Origin: Octopus vulgaris
Taxonomy: Eukaryota
Assembly (NCBI GenBank): GCA_951406725.2
Contig: OX597832.1
Location: 14,508,001-14,572,000, forward strand
Direction: 5' to 3'
Length of the DNA: 64,000 nucleotides
Numbering within the stretch: position 1 is the first letter of the stretch; each line of letters begins with the position of its first letter. Of the stretch, positions 3,056 through 61,099 are shown piece by piece. The translations under genes and the position numbers were made by a program. The notes below the pieces were generated by a model. The model made no database searches. It was not told the DNA's origin and was given only the letters and a program-made list of their open reading frames with translations.

Positions 3056-3612
3056 ATGATTTGATTGTCATCAGCTTAGAGAGGACAATCCATCGGCCAA
3101 TTGCAAGTAGGACAGCATGCTCTGGTTGTTGCGAAAGCTTACAATGTCCATGTAACAACAGCGATGCAACAACACCAACAGCACTACAGACCGTGCTCAT
3201 AGAGGGCACACCCAGGTAATCACGTTGAGGCAGGGCTGCTTTATTTACCTGCAACACCACCGTGATCGCTTCAGAGTGCCCAGTGTGACAGCTCGCGAGA
3301 CCATTAGCACTGGACAGCGATCCATAAACGACGTCCCGGTACGACGTCAACTTGCTACCAACAACCTGCGTTGCCGTCGTCCGGTTCGAGGGCCTATCTA
3401 CTCCGCCATCCACCGTCAGTCACGACTATACAGCACCGACATTGGTGACATCAATAGAGGTTGATAGTCTTCGGTGGTGAGAGCCATAACTGCGTTTCCA
3501 CCTCGGATGACTGAGTGAGGATGTGGCGTAGGAGAGGTGAACGCTACAAAGATGTATATGTCATGGAGAGAGACGCGTAGGGTAGTCAAAGCATCATGGT
3601 TTGGTGCGTTAC
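3056..3612 (+). pseudogene. Tc1-family transposase relic (HTH to first part of DDE domain)
   Basis: Frameshifted translation gives IGQLQVG..VAKAYNVH, RDRFRVPSVTARET..VRRQL....LRCRRPVRGP, VFGGES (for FSDES) and VRMWRRRGERY...VMER...SIMVW. Confidence 0.85.
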
Positions 3613-5184
3613 AGGCCTGAATCAGAGAATTGACTTTCAAAATAAATATTCCATTTGTGTATCTCAACCTATCGTTAATTGCTTATATCGTTATATGGAA
3701 TTTTATTATTAAAATGGAATTTTAACTGAGTTCTCGGTGCTTGTGAACGTGTGCGTGTGTCGTGTATATATTGCATTTAACTTATATAACGGACATCATA
3801 ATTTAAATCGCTCAGAAATTAACAGCTATGAATTTAAGCTTCGTTCAAAATGGGAAAAAGAACTTTGTGCAGGTATAAGTGCATAATAATCTTATTTGTG
3901 TTTAACTACAGCTTTATGCATATTTCGATGCGTAGTGAATAATTAGCCCCTTATAACTAACCGTGCGTACCAATCAATAATATAATGTATATGCAAAACA
4001 AGTCCTACACAATGAGGACCATAGTAAGCAAAGTTTGTCGTGTTTTATATTTAAAATAAATAATTATGATAATGTAACATTTATAATGATGTGGCCTGGT
4101 ATACACAAAACGGCTGAATCACGAACTGTAATTACATTGTAATTAAACTGTACATATATTAGTGAGTAATACACTTTTATATGTACAGTTCTCAAAATAT
4201 GAATGACATTTGAATTCATTATCACCATTATTAAGTCATTGTTAATTAAAATCTTTTAACTTGTACAACAAATGCAAAAAGACAGGAAGGGATCCAGAAA
4301 GACCTGTGAATTACCCAGGGAAATCTTGCATTGTACACTGCTGAAGACATCCAAATTAAATTAAATGGAATACCATATTTGTGCAATGCGTAGGTTGTGT
4401 GTTATCTCATAAATATTTCCATTACGAGATATGGAATATGAGATGGTTTTGAAGTACCAAACCACAACAACAGTTAGAAGCACAGTATAGCTAACGACTG
4501 ATCGAAAGTTTGCTCAGAACTCTATTATTTTAATATTTGATAACAGAATTGAATATTTCCTCGATTCAAATATGATAGTTTTGTTTATTTAAATGTGAAA
4601 GACTTGGTTCATAATGAATTCTCTGTTTAGAAATGAGATCATTTACGTCTAGATAGCTAAAAGCTTATTTCCATTGGAATTGTGTATAATGTGCGAAAAA
4701 CAGAAAAAGGCATTGTCTCTGCTCTCACTCACAACAATACTAGTTAGAGTTGCCTTCGAGATATTAATGTTTGATATCGCAAATAATTTTACAGGACAAT
4801 AAAACTGTAAACGAGTTCTCTTCGGGCAAATGTATATGAATGCATAAATGGATACGTAATCTTAGAAAACAAAATATGCTAATTCTGAAATAAATACGCT
4901 GAAATCAACGCACCGGAAAAAAAAAGGAGTTGAAAATCTCAAATGGTTGAAAAGCATAATTATTTGGATTTCAAAACATTGAAACATCAGCAAGAAATCA
5001 AATTAAGCTCGGTATTGTAGACCAATTGTCTTTTTTTTTTTTAAAGAATGCTGACGCTACAATGAGGACCTGTGAAGATATTAAGGACATTGCAACGAAT
5101 ATAAAAGCAAATCTTTACAAATTCACTGTCAATTATAAAGAAAAACTTGGAGAACAAAATTCTATTCGATAACACACACACACA

Positions 5185-6000: not shown

Positions 6001-6790
6001 AAGGCGGCGAGCTGGCACAAACATTGGCACGCCGGGCGAAATGCTTAGCGGTATTTCGTCTGCAGCTACCTTCGAGTTCAAATTCCGCCGGGGTCCACTT
6101 TGCTTTTCATCTTTTCGGGGTCGATTATATAAGTACCAATTATTCACTGGGATCGATATAATCGATGTAATCCGTTTGTCTGTCTTTGTCCTCTCTGTGT
6201 TTAGCCCCTTGTGGGTAGTAAAGAAATAGGTATTTCGCCTGCTGCTAAGTTCTGAGTTCAAATTCCGCCGACGTCGACTTTGCCTTTCGTATTTTCGGGG
6301 TCGATTAAATGAGTACCAGTTACGCACTGAGGTCGATATAATCAATTTAATCTGCGTGTCTGTCCTTGTTTGTCCTCTCTGTGTTTAGCCCCTTGTAGGT
6401 AGTAAAGAAATAGGTATTTCGTCTGCCGCTACGTTTCTGAGTTCAAATTCCGCCGAGGTCAACATTGTCTTTCATTCTTTCGGGTTCGACAAATAAAGTA
6501 CCAGTTACGTACTGGGGTCGATGTAATTGGCTTAACCTCATTGTCTGTCCTTGTTTGTCCCCTGAATGTTTAACCTTTTTGAGGGCAATAAAGAAATAAG
6601 AAACGTTAGCAACCCGGTCAAGATTGTCTACAGCAATTTTTTTTATCCTTTAAATTCTGTGTTCAAATTCAGCCTAGGTCTCACAGAGGATTCTATTTCT
6701 ACGAGATCGATAAATAAAAATACCTCTCAAGTGGTAGTGGTGATTCAATCAATCTAATCCCTCCTCTAAGATGTGTGGACTTGCATAAAA
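6001..6790 (+). mobile_element. Head-to-tail array of SINEs (one head, three young-tail bodies, one old degraded copy)
   Basis: Single head AAGGCGGCGAGCTGGC; B-box-like GAGTTCAAATTCC and the central block GCCTTTCATCCTTTCGGGGTCGAT..AAGTACCAG (recalling Deu/Nin/Meta SINE domains) repeated with ~184-bp period. Junctions at 6228|6229, 6412|6413 and 6598|6599. Confidence 0.9.
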
Positions 6791-7439
6791 ATAAAAATGA
6801 ATGCATGTACATTACGAGTATATGAGGACGTTGAAACTGCTAGGAATAGAAAAATCTTAGCTCAATTTTAATCTCAGGATATTAATATAGGGAGCTATAT
6901 GCTCATGCTGTATAGGATTAGATATGTTGTGTCTGAAATGAAATCTAGACAAACTACACACACGCTTATTCAATATGTGTACATTTGTGTGATAGAATGC
7001 AAAATCAATTTATGTAACTTTAATATAGCAATGGGAAATATTTCTGAAGTATATTTAATTATATCTCAAATGTAATTCTATGCCAAATACTTCTATTAAT
7101 TTATAATTGCAGAAAAGTTTCTAAAGACCAAAACAGTTTAATATAGATGCAATATACTTGAGAGTTCTTCAAAGTACTTGAAAAATTTCCTGTTTCCAAA
7201 ACTTTATATTCATGTGTACAGATTAACAGAGTATCAATGTAAAATAAATATCATATTATTATATAATTATATGTATATTATCGGAGATTTTCGTGTTAAA
7301 GTTTTACAGAGGCACTTATGCATAGACATACAGTAATTCAGACACACACAAACACACAGACATACACGAACACACGTACACGCACACATTCACGCACGTA
7401 GAATTAATTTTTTAAAATGGAGAGAAAAAGAGAACAACG

Positions 7440-21175: not shown

Positions 21176-21720
21176 TCACTGTGATCACCATGACCGACCA
21201 GACTATCAGATGTTGCTACAATTCGCTGGTCACAATGCGCTTCAGATTGTATTAGCCTTCAAATGACGCCAACCTGCAGGCTAAGCGAACAAGCCAACAG
21301 AAGAAAGATTGAAAGAAAGTTGTGGCGAAAGAGTACAGCAGGGATCGCCACCACTCCCTGCCGGAGCCTCGTTGAGCTTTAGGTGTTTTCGCTCAATAAA
21401 CACTCACAATGCCCGGTCTGGGAATCGAAACCTATTTCTTTATTACCCACAAGGGGCTAAACACAGAGGGAACAAACAAGGACAGACATAGGTATTAAGT
21501 CGATACTTAAATTATCGACCCCGAAATGATGAAAGGCAAAGTCGACCTCGGTGGAATTTGAACTCACAACGTAACGCAGACGAAATACCGCTAAGTATTT
21601 CGCCCGGCGTGCTAACGTTTCTGCCAGCTCGCCGCCTTTCGATTCCCGGTCTGGGAATCGAAACCGCGATCCTACGACCGCGAGTCCGCTGACCTAACCA
21701 CTGGACCTATTGCGCATCCA
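21176..21720 (-). mobile_element. tRNA-derived SINE type B, interrupted by a nested SINE
   Basis: tRNA-like head ..CCAGTGGTTAGG..GGTTTCGATTCCC identical in kind to 62855-63241 but with a different 3' half. Confidence 0.85.
21433..21638 (-). mobile_element. Young-tail SINE nested in the B-box of SINE type B, 21-bp TSD
   Basis: Full head and ..TAATAAAGAAATA tail; CCCGGTCTGGGAATCGAAACC duplicated at 21412-21432 and 21645-21665. Confidence 0.9.
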
Positions 21721-22260
21721 TACTACCTATAGTAGTAACAGAAAATATATGAGAAATTTCCACTCACATCATTCAAAGTGTGCTTTTATAAAGGCAGAGT
21801 ACACATTAATAAAATTAACAATAGTGTTTGAAAGAAAATTACAATGCTACGTACCAACGTAATTTTTTTCTGCATTCTGCAGTTGATATATTGTAGACCA
21901 ACGACGACTACTAAGTTTCTAAACGCGAATCCCAGAATGTAATAACATCCATTCAATCACGAAAGTCATAAGTATCGCAAAAACTGAAACATAATATCAT
22001 TATTAACAGAATCGTTAATTCCAAGTGATTTGATGATATAAGCATTCTGCGTCATAAGTACAAAACCAATATATTATCGAGATTTAACTACGAAGTACAA
22101 TCATGTGTGAAACTAGTAACTATCAATGTTATATCAGCTGTGATGTGCGAGCTCTTAAAATATGTATGAATAGTACATACATAGCACATATCAAGATACG
22201 ATATCCACTTAATATCATAGAGTATTATGAGTATTTAGTACACCAGGAGACATGCACAAC

Positions 22261-22595
22261 GGTATTCCGTCAGTATTTATGTTCTGGGTTCAAATTCTGG
22301 CGAGGACGACTTTGCCTTTCATCCTTTCGGGGTCGATTAAATAAATACCAGGTACGCACTGGAGTCGATATAATGGACTTAATCCGTTTATCTGTCCTTG
22401 TTTGTCCTCTCTGTGTTTAGCTCCTTGTGGGTAGTAACGAAATAGGTATTCCGTCAGTCTTTATGTTCTGGGTTCAAATTCTGGCGAGGTCGACTTTGAC
22501 TGTTATTTCTTTGGGGTCGATAAAAATAAGTACCAGTTGAGATTTGGAGTTGATGTAATAAACTTACACCTTAACATGTAATTACTAGCCTTGAA
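22261..22595 (+). mobile_element. SINE dimer (young-tail body followed by older body)
   Basis: Junction AAATA|GGTATT at 22444|22445; both units start with the same locus-specific ~47 bp. Confidence 0.85.
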
Positions 22596-22715
22596 ATCAA
22601 TGTTATAAAGTACTCCATATTTCAATGAAACGTTTGTGTTGTAGATTACGCAAATTCTTCACCAGCGGGAGTACTTTTACTACGGTAATAGTAATTTCTT
22701 CATGATTCAATTTTT

Positions 22716-24857: not shown

Positions 24858-25062
24858 TAAGGTTGCGTGCTTGCAGAAACGTTAGCTTGTCGGGTGAAAT
24901 GCTTAGTGGCATTTCGTTTGTCTTTACATTCACAGTTCAATTTCCACCGAGGTCGACTTTGCGTTTCATACTTTCCACATCGATAAATTAAGTATTGGGG
25001 TCATCAAATCAACTGGTCCCCTCAACCTAAATTTCGGGTCTTATGCCTAGATTAGAAAAGAC
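24858..25062 (+). mobile_element. Older-tail SINE of the AAGGCGGCGAG family
   Basis: GCAGAAACGTTAGC...GAGGTCGACTTTG...AAATTTCGGGTCTTATGCCTAGATTAGAAAAG. Confidence 0.75.
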
Positions 25063-28110: not shown

Positions 28111-28158
<48 letters not shown>

Positions 28159-28227
28159 GTATATATAAGAGAAATGTGTACTTTTCATCTTACATATGTA
28201 TATATATAAATCTTATATATATATATG

Positions 28228-28273
<46 letters not shown>

Positions 28274-28330
28274 ACGTATATATAAGAGAAATGTGTACTT
28301 TTCATCTTACATATGTATATATATAAATCT

Positions 28331-28370
<40 letters not shown>

Positions 28371-28902
28371 CATACTTACATATATGTTTGTGTGTGTTTA
28401 TATGCATATTCTTATGCATGTTTATGTGAGGGTGCACCGTGTAGATGTCATGAACGCAGCAGGTTTATATCTAGATATTGTAAGAATATAGTTGCGTGTA
28501 TCTTTTATCTTTTTTTAAAAATATTTTTCTACCTATTGTGACAGGTAATTTTGGAGGGATATGTGAACTCACCGGGCAAATATCCCTTTTTTACCTGACA
28601 TAGAATTTCTTCATATTTATTGGAGTTAGATCACCCGTCCAATATTTCTAGAAGATATCAAAATCGTCCATTAAAAGTTTTCGCCCCCTTCCAATTCACT
28701 TGGACCAGCATCACAACGAACCTTCGGTTCCACGGTTAAATGTCTATGAAATGCTTTCCCGAGACGAAGAATGCGGTTTTCCGATTTTAGAATTTATTGA
28801 GAATGTCAAATAGTATTAATACTGCTTTCATCGCTAATAATGAAATTTACACAACTTTCTGGCTATATGCAGCAGCAAGAATTTGTTAATATTTGTTGCT
28901 TT

Positions 28903-36340: not shown

Positions 36341-36677
36341 CTTTTTCTTCTCAAGGCACAATTCCCAAAACGTTTGGGGAGTGGGCCTGTCGATTATATA
36401 GAACCCAGTACGTAACTGAAACTTAATTTATCGACCTACGAAAGGATGGACGGCCAAGTCGAACTCAGTGGAATTTGAACTCAAAACTTAAAGCATTTTG
36501 CCCGGTGTTCTAAAGTTTCTGCCAACTCTCCGACTTGCATGTGTGTTTAACATTATGTCATAAATTGCCTATCATCCTTTCGGGTCAATAAATTAAATAA
36601 CAGTTGCATACTGGGGTCGATCTAATCGATTGGCCCATCCCACCAAAATTTGGGTCTTGTGCCTACCGTAGAAACAT
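36341..36677. mobile_element. Two older-tail SINEs in inverted orientation, each with its own TSD
   Basis: Minus copy 36341-36535 has TSD TGCATGTGTG.TTAA.ATT; plus truncated copy 36564-36677 has TSD ATTATGTCATAA. Confidence 0.75.
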
Positions 36678-49371: not shown

Positions 49372-49580
49372 ACGAGCTGAAAATCGTTAGAACGTCGGGA
49401 AAATTGCCGTGATAAGCTTAGTTATGTCCGAGTTTACATTCTGAAATCAAATTCCTCTGAGATCGACTTAGCCTTTCATTATTTCGAGATCGATAAAATA
49501 AGTACCATGTTAATGTTGTACTCCATGTTTTCGACTTAACCACCCACCTCCAAAATTGCAGGCATTGTACCAAAATTCGA
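49372..49580 (+). mobile_element. Degraded older-tail SINE
   Basis: CGAGCTGAAAATCGTTAG...GATCGACTTAGCCTTTCAT...GATCGATAAAATAAGTACCA. A similar relic lies at ~44460-44600. Confidence 0.65.
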
Positions 49581-56489: not shown

Positions 56490-56895
56490 ATAATCCTTTC
56501 TCTTATAGGCATAAGGCCTAAAATTTGTTTTGGTCGGTGGGTAAAGTCGATAACATCGACTCTAGTATTCAAATATTACCTATTTAATGGACCCCGATAG
56601 GACAAAAGGTCTTGTCGACCTCGACGTCATTTGAATGCTAGAAGGTTGCGAAATGCCCCTAAGCATTTCGTCCATTGCTCTAATGGCTCTGCCATCTCAC
56701 CGTCTTAGTAATCCTTTCTACTAAAGGCACAAAGCCTATAATTTGGGGGAGAGGTATAGTCGATTACATTGACTCCAGTGTTTTACTGGTACTTGAGTTA
56801 TGGACGCCGAAAGGATGAAAAGCTGATCGACCTCGGTATAATTTGAACTCAGAATGTAGCGACGGGCGAAATACTGCTAAGCATTTCGTTCAGCT
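56490..56895 (-). mobile_element. Two tandem older-tail SINEs
   Basis: Two TAATCCTTTCT..AGGCA.AA.GCCT..AATTTG tails (~56490 and ~56710), each with GTCGACCTCG/ATTTGAA and CTAAGCATTTCG segments. Confidence 0.7.
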
Positions 56896-58217: not shown

Positions 58218-59199
58218 ACGTATGTATGTATGTATATACATACATAGGCACTAACATATATGTGTGTGTGTGTCTCTCTGTCTGTCTGTGTCAGTGTGCG
58301 TGCGCGCATTTACTGATGCACAAACAATTATTCGTTATATCACCTTGAAGAATGCTCGCGTAGCACTACCTGCCCATAATACGTTACAGCACAATGCTAA
58401 CATAATAACGGTATTCCTTTGTATGAAGAGAAATTGGTATATATGGAATCTACAATGAATATGCTGGCAATAATTGATGTATTAGAAAGTTTGAGTAATG
58501 ATGTCGACAGAGATTGAGAAACATTCGAAAGAAACGTCCACGGGACGTTTGCCTCTTAGGAAGAGGAAACATTGTAAAATATGTATTTTTGAGCATTTGA
58601 AAGATTATTGAAATAATACGGATGTATAAGTTTACAGGAAGTTTTTTCACGTATCTAATTTCACTATATTATAGCTTATCATACCCGGTCATACCCAGAG
58701 AGAGGATCCTTCGACTATAGAATAAATTTGGCTAAAGTTCTAGATCTCCGTGTGAGATCTCTGAACAATTCGAGAATAACGTATCGCAATGTTGCAACAA
58801 TAAAACTTTTTATTAAGAGAAATATATTTTAAAAAACCAAACAAACAAACACAAAAAAAACATGCACTATCTCGGCCAGTGAGACGCAGTATTATAGTAC
58901 ATAATGAATAATTATAATATATAAACTTCAATGAATTGTAAAAACAATTTAAAAGAACAAAGGAGAAAAAAAAAGAAATTAAACAGGGCAATACATCGAA
59001 TAAACTTGCCCGTTGCTATAGCAAGCTGCAAGGTGTTAATCCTTGCCACTACACTGTATCATCTCGGGTTGAAGAAATTGTTTACTAATCTATGTTCTGG
59101 TAATAAACAATTAGATTATAAATCAAAACTGAAGTGGAGCCTTTCTCTCGATACTTATATATCGGTACAACTTATGTCTCTTAATATCTCCTTATCTCA

Positions 59200-59597
59200 A
59201 AGGCGGTGATCTGGTAGAAACGTTTACACGCAGGGCAAAATGCTTAGCAGTATTCCGTCTGCCGTTACGTTCTGAGTTCAAATTCCGGCGAGGTCGACTT
59301 TGCCTTTCATAATTTCGGGGTCGATTAAATAAGTACCAGTTCCGCACTGGATTCGATGTAATCGACTTAATCTGTTTGTCTGTCCTTGTTTGTCCCCTCT
59401 GTGTTTAGCCCCTTGTGGGTAGTAAAGAAATAGGTATTTAGTCTGTCTTTACGATCTGAGTTCAAATTCCGCCGCAATCCAGTTTGCCTTTCTTCATTTC
59501 TGGATTGATAAATTAAGTACCATTTACGTACTGGGCCCTATCTTATCAAGTGGCCCCCTCCGCCAAAATGTCGGGCCTTGTGTCTAAAGTAGACGAG
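59200..59597 (+). mobile_element. SINE dimer (young-tail unit followed by headless older-tail unit)
   Basis: Junction AAGAAATA|GGTATTT at 59432|59433; the second unit ends with the older ..AAAATGTCGGGCCTTGTGTCTAAAGTAGA tail. Confidence 0.88.
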
Positions 59598-59773
59598 TGT
59601 ATCTTCTTATCTCTCTTATTCGTCTTCACATATTCTATGACCAATTGCATTTCATTTGTGACATTTCGACTATCTGCTAATATGCACATACAAACACAAA
59701 CAAACTCACACACAAGCACACGCACACATGTATAAATAAGTATTATGTACATATACACACACACATACATATT

Positions 59774-60465: not shown

Positions 60466-60477
60466 GTATTTATATGG

Positions 60478-61053
60478 TTTCTGATTATAAATATCTTGGG
60501 TCATACATATCATCATCTGGAAAAGACTTTCTAACTAGAAAGGGTAAGGCCTGGTCAGCCTGTTATGACATGCATAAGATCTGGTCATCAAATCTAAGTA
60601 GAGACTTCAAACTTGAAATCTTCAAAGCCACAGTCGAACCAATTCTACTATATTGCCCAGAAACCTGGACGTTATGAAAAAAGCTTGAGAGGCGGCTGGA
60701 TGGAACCTACACTCGCCTCCTTATGAGAGCTCAAAATCTCTCGTGGAAGCGCCATCCAACCTAAATGCGAATATATGGGAAACTACCACCTGTGTCATTG
60801 CTTGTGAAAGGTAGGAGAGTCCAGTTTGCTGGACATTGTTGTAGAGCTGAAAAAGAAGTAATTTCTACTCTTCTCCTCTGGAAGCCATCTACTCGCAATA
60901 CCAGATGGCGCACACTCTCCTACCCTGAAGTAATCTCCAGGGATACAGGCATCCAGCAACAGGACCTCCATAATGCCATGATGGATCGTGAAGTCTGGCG
61001 TAGACATGGTAAATTCCATTGTCTCGACCACGGTCGAACAATGATGATGATGA
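60478..61053 (+). mobile_element. RTE-like LINE 3' fragment with (ATG)n tail in (TA)n
   Basis: [36 protein letters not shown] and AMMDREVWR; two in-frame stops; ends CAATGATGATGATGAT. Confidence 0.9.
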
Positions 61054-61099
61054 TATATATAAATAAATAAAACATTGCATATATACATACATATATGTA

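Follow-up and report, generated by a model that had tools for sequence, protein, structure and literature searches.

Throughout the octopus genome, a SINE is found joined by its 3' end to one exact internal position of other copies of its own family, and this self-junction feature is real and far above chance. In the explanation that accounts best for it, and which is held here with somewhat better than even confidence, a SINE of about 233 nt with a tail of presumed L1/Tx1-type inserts into itself at a +50/+17 motif (GGTAT/TATAT/AGAAA), while the composites formed in this way spread as read-through RNAs.

The window, i.e. the whole 64-kb stretch of Octopus vulgaris DNA that was analysed, has a GC content of 33.5% and is rich in microsatellites. 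Exact matches to TAA(A/C)GAAATA occur nine times therein, seven of them being SINE tails and two (30865, 62037) unrelated. An earlier note on this DNA had described seven young tails, four of which join GGTATT at one internal site, and all four junctions (6228/6229, 6412/6413, 22444/22445 and 59432/59433) were recovered at consensus position +50. Likewise, the tail at 6598 abuts an old copy, at +17, and the remaining two tails described were found in another tRNA-like SINE and in unique DNA, respectively. The corresponding features are:

6001..6228, + strand: first unit of an array, with full head (consensus 1-49), body and young tail; 91% identity to the young consensus
6229..6412, + strand: second unit, headless, consensus 50-233; 89% identity
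6413..6598, + strand: third unit, headless, consensus 50-233, with a CAA-type tail; 87% identity
6599..6790, + strand: old copy with strong divergence, joined at its +17 site (AGAAACG)
21433..21638, - strand: solo young copy within another tRNA-like SINE, joined to GGTTTCG
22238..22444, + strand: first unit, with an old truncated head
22445..22600, + strand: old headless unit starting at +50; 79% identity
33054..33283, + strand: solo young copy in unique DNA, with the 9-bp TSD AGTATAAAT
59200..59432, + strand: young headed first unit; 92% identity
59433..59599, + strand: old-tail (O1-type) unit from +50

The copy at 21433..21638 is bounded by a 21-bp TSD (21645-21665 and 21412-21432), and the dimer at 59200-59599 is flanked as a whole by a 14-bp TSD with one mismatch (59185-59198 / 59600-59613). 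A search for TSDs flanking the array at 6001-6790 found none. At the 5' junction of the 21433 copy, six extra bases (21639-21644, - strand) repeat a stretch of the target in reverse-complemented form, as though the cDNA had at its end taken a folded-back target strand as template. Further copies of this family, with older tails or in fragments, lie at 24859, 28903, 36390-36630, 49434-49507 and 56577-56888, and their old tails are located at ATTAT/AATAT sites, often right behind other old tails. The window further contains a LINE 3' fragment ending in (GAT)n (60477-61055, + strand), which we take to be RTE-like, and a tandem duplication of 117 bp with 96-99% identity within an AT microsatellite (28112-28387).

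The consensus of the family, built from 110 full-length copies, comprises 233 nt and places GGTATT at +50 and AGAAACG at +17. The element is short, non-coding, interspersed and abundant (101,678 exact tails on both strands), its TSDs vary in length between 11 and 30 bp with a mode of 16, and its 3' tail of about 42 nt is shared with LINEs at 81-84% identity, all of which is in keeping with a SINE. These variable TSDs speak against a rolling-circle (Helitron-like) origin, which was therefore discarded. The head shows a B-box-like GAGTTCAAATTCC. An Rfam search yielded no tRNA match and nothing useful, the consensus is devoid of TTTT (the T4 terminator), and the SINE unit folds no better as RNA than shuffled sequences (z 0.67). 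At L145 (about 3270-3700, - strand), the tail alone is present as four tandem 55-bp repeats ahead of a full copy.

For genome-wide counts, 2.8 Gb were searched for tails and junctions, and the young tail was scored as an exact 24-mer on both strands. GGTATT directly follows 40,013 of the 101,678 exact tails compared with a background of 0.00025 per position, which bears out the flank enrichment expected in the earlier note, and the exact self-junction at +50 was found behind 26,005 of these tails. Of 225 tails sampled, 21 had been picked by their flank and were left out; the 204 flank-unbiased tails comprise 90 at +50, 12 at +17, 7 at other self positions and 95 at non-self sites. The corresponding figures for the 54 tails among them that come from random blocks and the window are 23, 3, 5 and 23. 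The idea that landing occurs almost always in SINEs hence describes the window only, given the 95 non-self ends among 204; with respect to the putative safe harbour of the earlier note, about half of the tails lie in non-self DNA. Approximately 44% of the sampled tails (90/204) end on one exact base of another copy of the same family, a share above the 20% of flanks in one target that marks SINEU-type elements, although the majority of these junctions may have been inherited rather than formed by separate insertions. If each junction is counted as an insertion of its own, both copy number and age of the family are misread.

The sequence preference at the insertion site is a property of the target. 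TSDs are present at 78 of 169 non-self ends, as opposed to 1.2% of shuffled pairs, and their upstream copy, which records the site before insertion, also begins with GGT, TAT or AGA. GGT opens 12 of the 31 upstream copies belonging to TAG/TAA/CAG-type insertions, and TAT opens 13 of the 30 belonging to CAA-type ones. Altogether, 34 of 61 upstream copies have TAT at base 1 or 3, compared with a TAT background of 4.8%. The motif is usually carried by both TSD copies, in line with the site preference that had been proposed. The alternative reading of GGTA as part of the tail was discarded, since upstream TSD copies have the motif and the five bases preceding these copies are unlike the tail. The element sometimes inserts into itself because its preferred short target occurs in its own sequence. 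An antisense site in the same SINE was used 631 times genome-wide, and among 25 such insertions inspected the upstream TSD copy was kept in 20 and the full head in 21. The sense self-site is 41-fold commoner than the antisense one, and therefore a sense-only amplifier must act beyond the visible primary insertions. A recurrent landing site starting with GGTAC lies inside a different abundant repeat (L071, L072, L073, L085). At L081, L146, L261 and L275, the last six tail bases are present twice at the junction, which points to slippage when reverse transcription began.

Primary sense insertions at +50 with TSDs do exist, as the earlier note had anticipated. Host sequence up to +50 followed by a new head gave 129 exact matches genome-wide versus 3 at a control site, the 129 including some tandem head repeats, and the target was repeated after the inserted tail in 23 of 29 distinct two-headed loci inspected, several of which carry host-private alleles. 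The claim that no array has more than one head thus held for the window and failed for the genome. On the other hand, most arrays are not intact primary insertions: a host head ahead of the parsed head was found in only 3 of 264 cases, with L155 and L087 as additional ones seen separately. A head segment of 64-65 bp (1-65) also occurs in tandem with up to eight copies (C10:17996022-17996498; C1:194001251; C11:19231498), and in such head-segment tandems the duplication arising from a primary +50 insertion can itself expand.

Among the 86 parsed arrays, 59 are dimers and three consist of five units. The last unit, which is always older in the window, carries a young tail in 37 of the 86, so that this rule does not extend to the genome. 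A full head starts 78 of 101 first units. Where a single-headed array ends in an old unit (33 arrays), its head resembles those of solo young copies (p=0.11) and differs from those of solo old copies (p=2e-11), while divergence amounts to 0.055 in the first compared with 0.096 in the last unit (23/33); upstream units are accordingly younger, which answers the comparison of unit divergence that had been suggested. Last units fall into four tail classes, O1, O2, O3 and young. Young heads combined with last units of several classes imply that the head is not the host's and that there is no single dimer master. At one threshold, a TSD encloses the whole array in 11 of the 25 arrays that end in an old unit and in 16 of the 34 that end in a young one. 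The earlier note had regarded TSDs round the whole dimer together with equal unit ages as the mark of a dimeric master or unequal crossing-over; TSDs do often enclose the array, but the ages are unequal. Contigs of four related runs at L060 and L155 end inside the repeat, and the lack of cover over the upstream flank of L060 in three runs was left out of account.

The proposed mechanism begins with insertions that, as observed, give TSDs of about 16 bp starting with the motif and include two-headed primary insertions at +50, and these rare events would serve as sources of composite RNAs. The young inner head would drive Pol III through the downstream host body, which offers no T4 stop, and the composite RNA would be reverse-transcribed from the distal tail, so that the resulting array would have a single young head, end in an older unit and be flanked as a whole by a TSD. 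In addition, local duplication of adjacent units is seen in roughly one in five young-young pairs. Spread of the arrays as composite RNA is likely on these grounds, and the multimeric RNA that the earlier note had named as its alternative probably fits most arrays better than its main proposal, with the amendment that composite sources would be numerous, in place of a single dimer master. For L046, where a 22-bp TSD encloses a young unit and 29 nt of the next unit, a read-through RNA template is the best explanation; no second clear read-through copy turned up in the 15 arrays whose end is unclassified. This scarcity speaks against the proposed mechanism, as do the existence of arrays with old heads (22444, L288), the 2%-diverged head of L060 inside a doubtful TSD with 28% mismatch, the threshold-dependent TSD mismatch of old-ended arrays, and the fact that the observed copies of tail-sharing LINEs mostly have (TATC)n and not the +50 site as their target.

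Alternatively, arrays might be remodelled in place, i.e. when a SINE inserts into a resident copy at +50, its full-length cDNA pairs with the host head and takes its place, or else the duplicated 65-bp head is reduced to the young one, which would imply homing-like self-targeting 25-100 times above the prediction from the short motif. This is rather unlikely, even though several features agree with it: O1 last units are nearly as diverged as solo O1 copies (0.098 vs 0.125), age increases from 5' to 3' in 34 arrays vs 18, TSD mismatch in old-ended arrays appears old-like (0.116-0.14) at two settings and young-like (0.068) at another, and the old last unit of L060 has a young-looking start. The new strand would, however, have to win over 49 nt at 15-20% mismatch nearly every time; L155 displays a young head that is 5'-truncated against a perfect 12-bp TSD without any host-head remnant, L046 could not originate in this way, and the frequency of visible two-headed insertions is close to what the motif by itself would lead one to expect, SINE +50 accounting for 48 of the 338 GGTATT sites sampled. 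The route favoured in the earlier note, in which an endonuclease inserts the SINE at +50 and its 5' end is joined through homology so that the host head survives, appears improbable as a general explanation. It agrees with the 22444 array, whose first unit has four rare alleles (consensus 56-89) in common with the old downstream unit and which reads as an in-place join retaining the host head, with L288, where a head diverged by 26% sits on a body diverged by 0%, and with rare-allele sharing with old last units that drops from 7/66 at positions 50-66 to 1/87 at 152+. As the main route it is nevertheless contradicted by the sequences, given the young heads of the 33 old-ended arrays and the diagnostic head bases at positions 38 and 52, which are young-type in 7 of 7 O2/O3-ended arrays; it stands as a minority route, and host-head retention (22444, L288) and local duplication are both shown to occur as minor routes. 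A DNA-level tandem duplication by unequal crossing-over or slippage, or one fixed dimeric master, is very improbable as an overall account. At least two rare alleles are shared by 18 of 85 young-young neighbour pairs (null 0.7) and runs reach 10 units, yet no rare allele is common to 45 of 85 young-young and 24 of 37 young-old pairs, last units are older and belong to four different tail classes, and non-self sites carry the motif too, so that this is excluded as the sole cause. Arrays of about 10 and about 6 units with a period of about 185 bp (C1:4676262-4677965 and C1:4607428-4608382) form the satellite-like ends of the distribution.

The LINE sharing the tail, which the earlier note had proposed to look for, was found: over 41-43 nt the SINE tail is 81-84% identical to LINE 3' UTRs behind ORF2-like frames (L039/L319, L299). 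Homologs of the tail-sharing LINEs possess RVT_1 and zf-RVT, and likeness to L1 ORF2 is weak (E 0.4-0.7); the partner is presumably of L1/Tx1-type. One of seven relatives of a LINE fragment is from Argonauta. TAT occurs three bases after AAAGAA in 8 of 8 LINE tails among those listed, mostly as (TATC)n, which supports an endonuclease with a TAT core. Among 28 LINE-like tail matches at +50 none is a LINE, all being SINE variants; an RVT_1 search returned 30 loci in four LINE families, none with the SINE tail, and R4/Dong-type 3' ends (L140, L122) compared by eye do not share it. A 731-aa ORF at L140:4912-7104, which we take to be R4/Dong-like, has RVT_1 and zf-RVT matches and ends in (TAA)n. 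Tx1-like LINE 3' ends run into the SINE at L122 (about 3500-4050, - strand) and L133 (about 1780-2200), entering at roughly +34 in sense orientation and close to the antisense GGTAC site.

Regarding the choice of target in the proposed mechanism, the LINE endonuclease would supply the TAT preference, while RNA extending past ...AAAUA into the flank would pair with the nicked strand and fix the first bases, with the result that each subfamily would inherit its target. The CAA subfamily, which differs from the others by two tail bases and is of equal age (0.064 vs 0.062), is followed by AG at 7,431 of 14,132 tails (52.6%), as opposed to 6,759 of 87,546 (7.7%) for other tails. The ratio of +50 to +17 self-junctions is 8:13 for CAA and 111:1 for the others, and that of GG to AG at non-self ends is 10:17 and 36:3, respectively; non-self ends of CAA (n=75) comprise 31 TA, 17 AG and 10 GG, and those of TAG (n=52) 26 GG. 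GG in the upstream TSD copy was found in 3 of 30 CAA and 14 of 31 other cases (p=0.004). Where TSD bases 1-5 mismatch, the motif is favoured in the 3' copy (12 vs 2), an asymmetry that shrinks to 7 vs 2 (p=0.18) when the strictest threshold is applied, in a set that includes mis-registered TSDs. This lean and the subfamily differences suggest that an RNA extension pairs with the primer strand. RNA-target pairing has been proposed for RTE SINEs, R1Bm and the I factor, according to the accessible part of PMC6007223, and guidance of target choice by RNA is likely here. In a rival account of this step, which we consider possible though somewhat doubtful, endonucleases alone would suffice, several Tx1-type LINE families each mobilising one SINE subfamily without RNA pairing. 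The motif usually present in both TSD copies, the TAT target of the tail-sharing LINEs and the target specificity established for Tx1 (PMC4494074, in its accessible part) are all compatible with such an account; against it stand the 3' lean itself and the fact that subfamilies of the same age and only two tail bases apart have non-self targets that mirror their own self-junction. Tentatively, target choice could even be heritable and self-reinforcing: read-through RNA with the landing flank would guide daughters to similar sites, and one self-insertion would have made the element's own +50 the dominant guide, giving an RNA-guided, self-homing retroelement with about 100,000 self-junctions and an unchanged enzyme. 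If true, this would be a natural example of such an element. In any case, tens of thousands of natural events bear on the long-open question of endonuclease versus RNA-DNA pairing in the target choice of non-LTR elements, and subfamilies of the same age with different targets render it directly testable.

The literature covered contains no account of this octopus system or of a SINE targeting its own interior at such a scale, Repbase/Dfam, supplements and the 1994 octopus SINE paper, which may describe the family, being beyond its scope; the accessible parts of PMC13282606, PMC4824008 and PMC4758252 do not describe the system. The closest case, as far as the accessible text of PMC4494074 goes, is crocodilian SINEU-3 with Tx1-Mar LINEs, along with Xenopus Tx1 in Tx1D. 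In both the SINEU-3/Tx1-Mar and the octopus case, a SINE whose partner is a LINE of Tx1-type, presumably so in octopus, favours a site within a transposon, makes TSDs of around 16 bp and builds up tandems as one insertion follows another. In SINEU-3/Tx1-Mar, however, the site belongs to a different transposon and the units of a tandem stay complete, with a TSD between them, whereas the octopus SINE contains its own +50/+17 target, builds mostly one-headed arrays and makes half of its insertions at non-self motif sites. For RTE-type SINEs such as AfroSINE, the 3' repeat predicts the first TSD base (PMC6007223, accessible part). As in the octopus, near-identical variants with different 3' ends differ in their targets, and RNA-target pairing was proposed there; the guide in RTE-type SINEs is a microsatellite tail, in contrast to what is apparently read-through into the octopus element's own internal sequence, and the partner tail in octopus is presumably of L1/Tx1-type. 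A headed unit followed by head-truncated tandem units is likewise known from squamate SINE-derived satellites (PMC10702118) and the TSD-(SINE)n-TSD arrays of the clam Scapharca (PMC11481361), which the accessible parts of both sources ascribe to recombination and which involve about 3% of copies in the clam. The octopus SINE, unlike these, involves about 44% of tails, mostly in dimers of unlike age, and has two-headed, TSD-flanked intermediates; at least four middle units in long homogenised arrays, as in sSat, are not its pattern, as most arrays are dimers and neighbours mostly lack shared rare alleles. Its visible intermediates show one way in which an interspersed repeat can turn into a tandem array. 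Alu and other dimeric SINEs retrotranspose as composite RNAs, and Alu elements cluster in A-tails, with the element supplying its own target. The octopus SINE differs in that it is no fixed dimer with halves of equal age, its last units being older and of four tail classes, and in that its target is an internal site of mixed bases rather than the tail.
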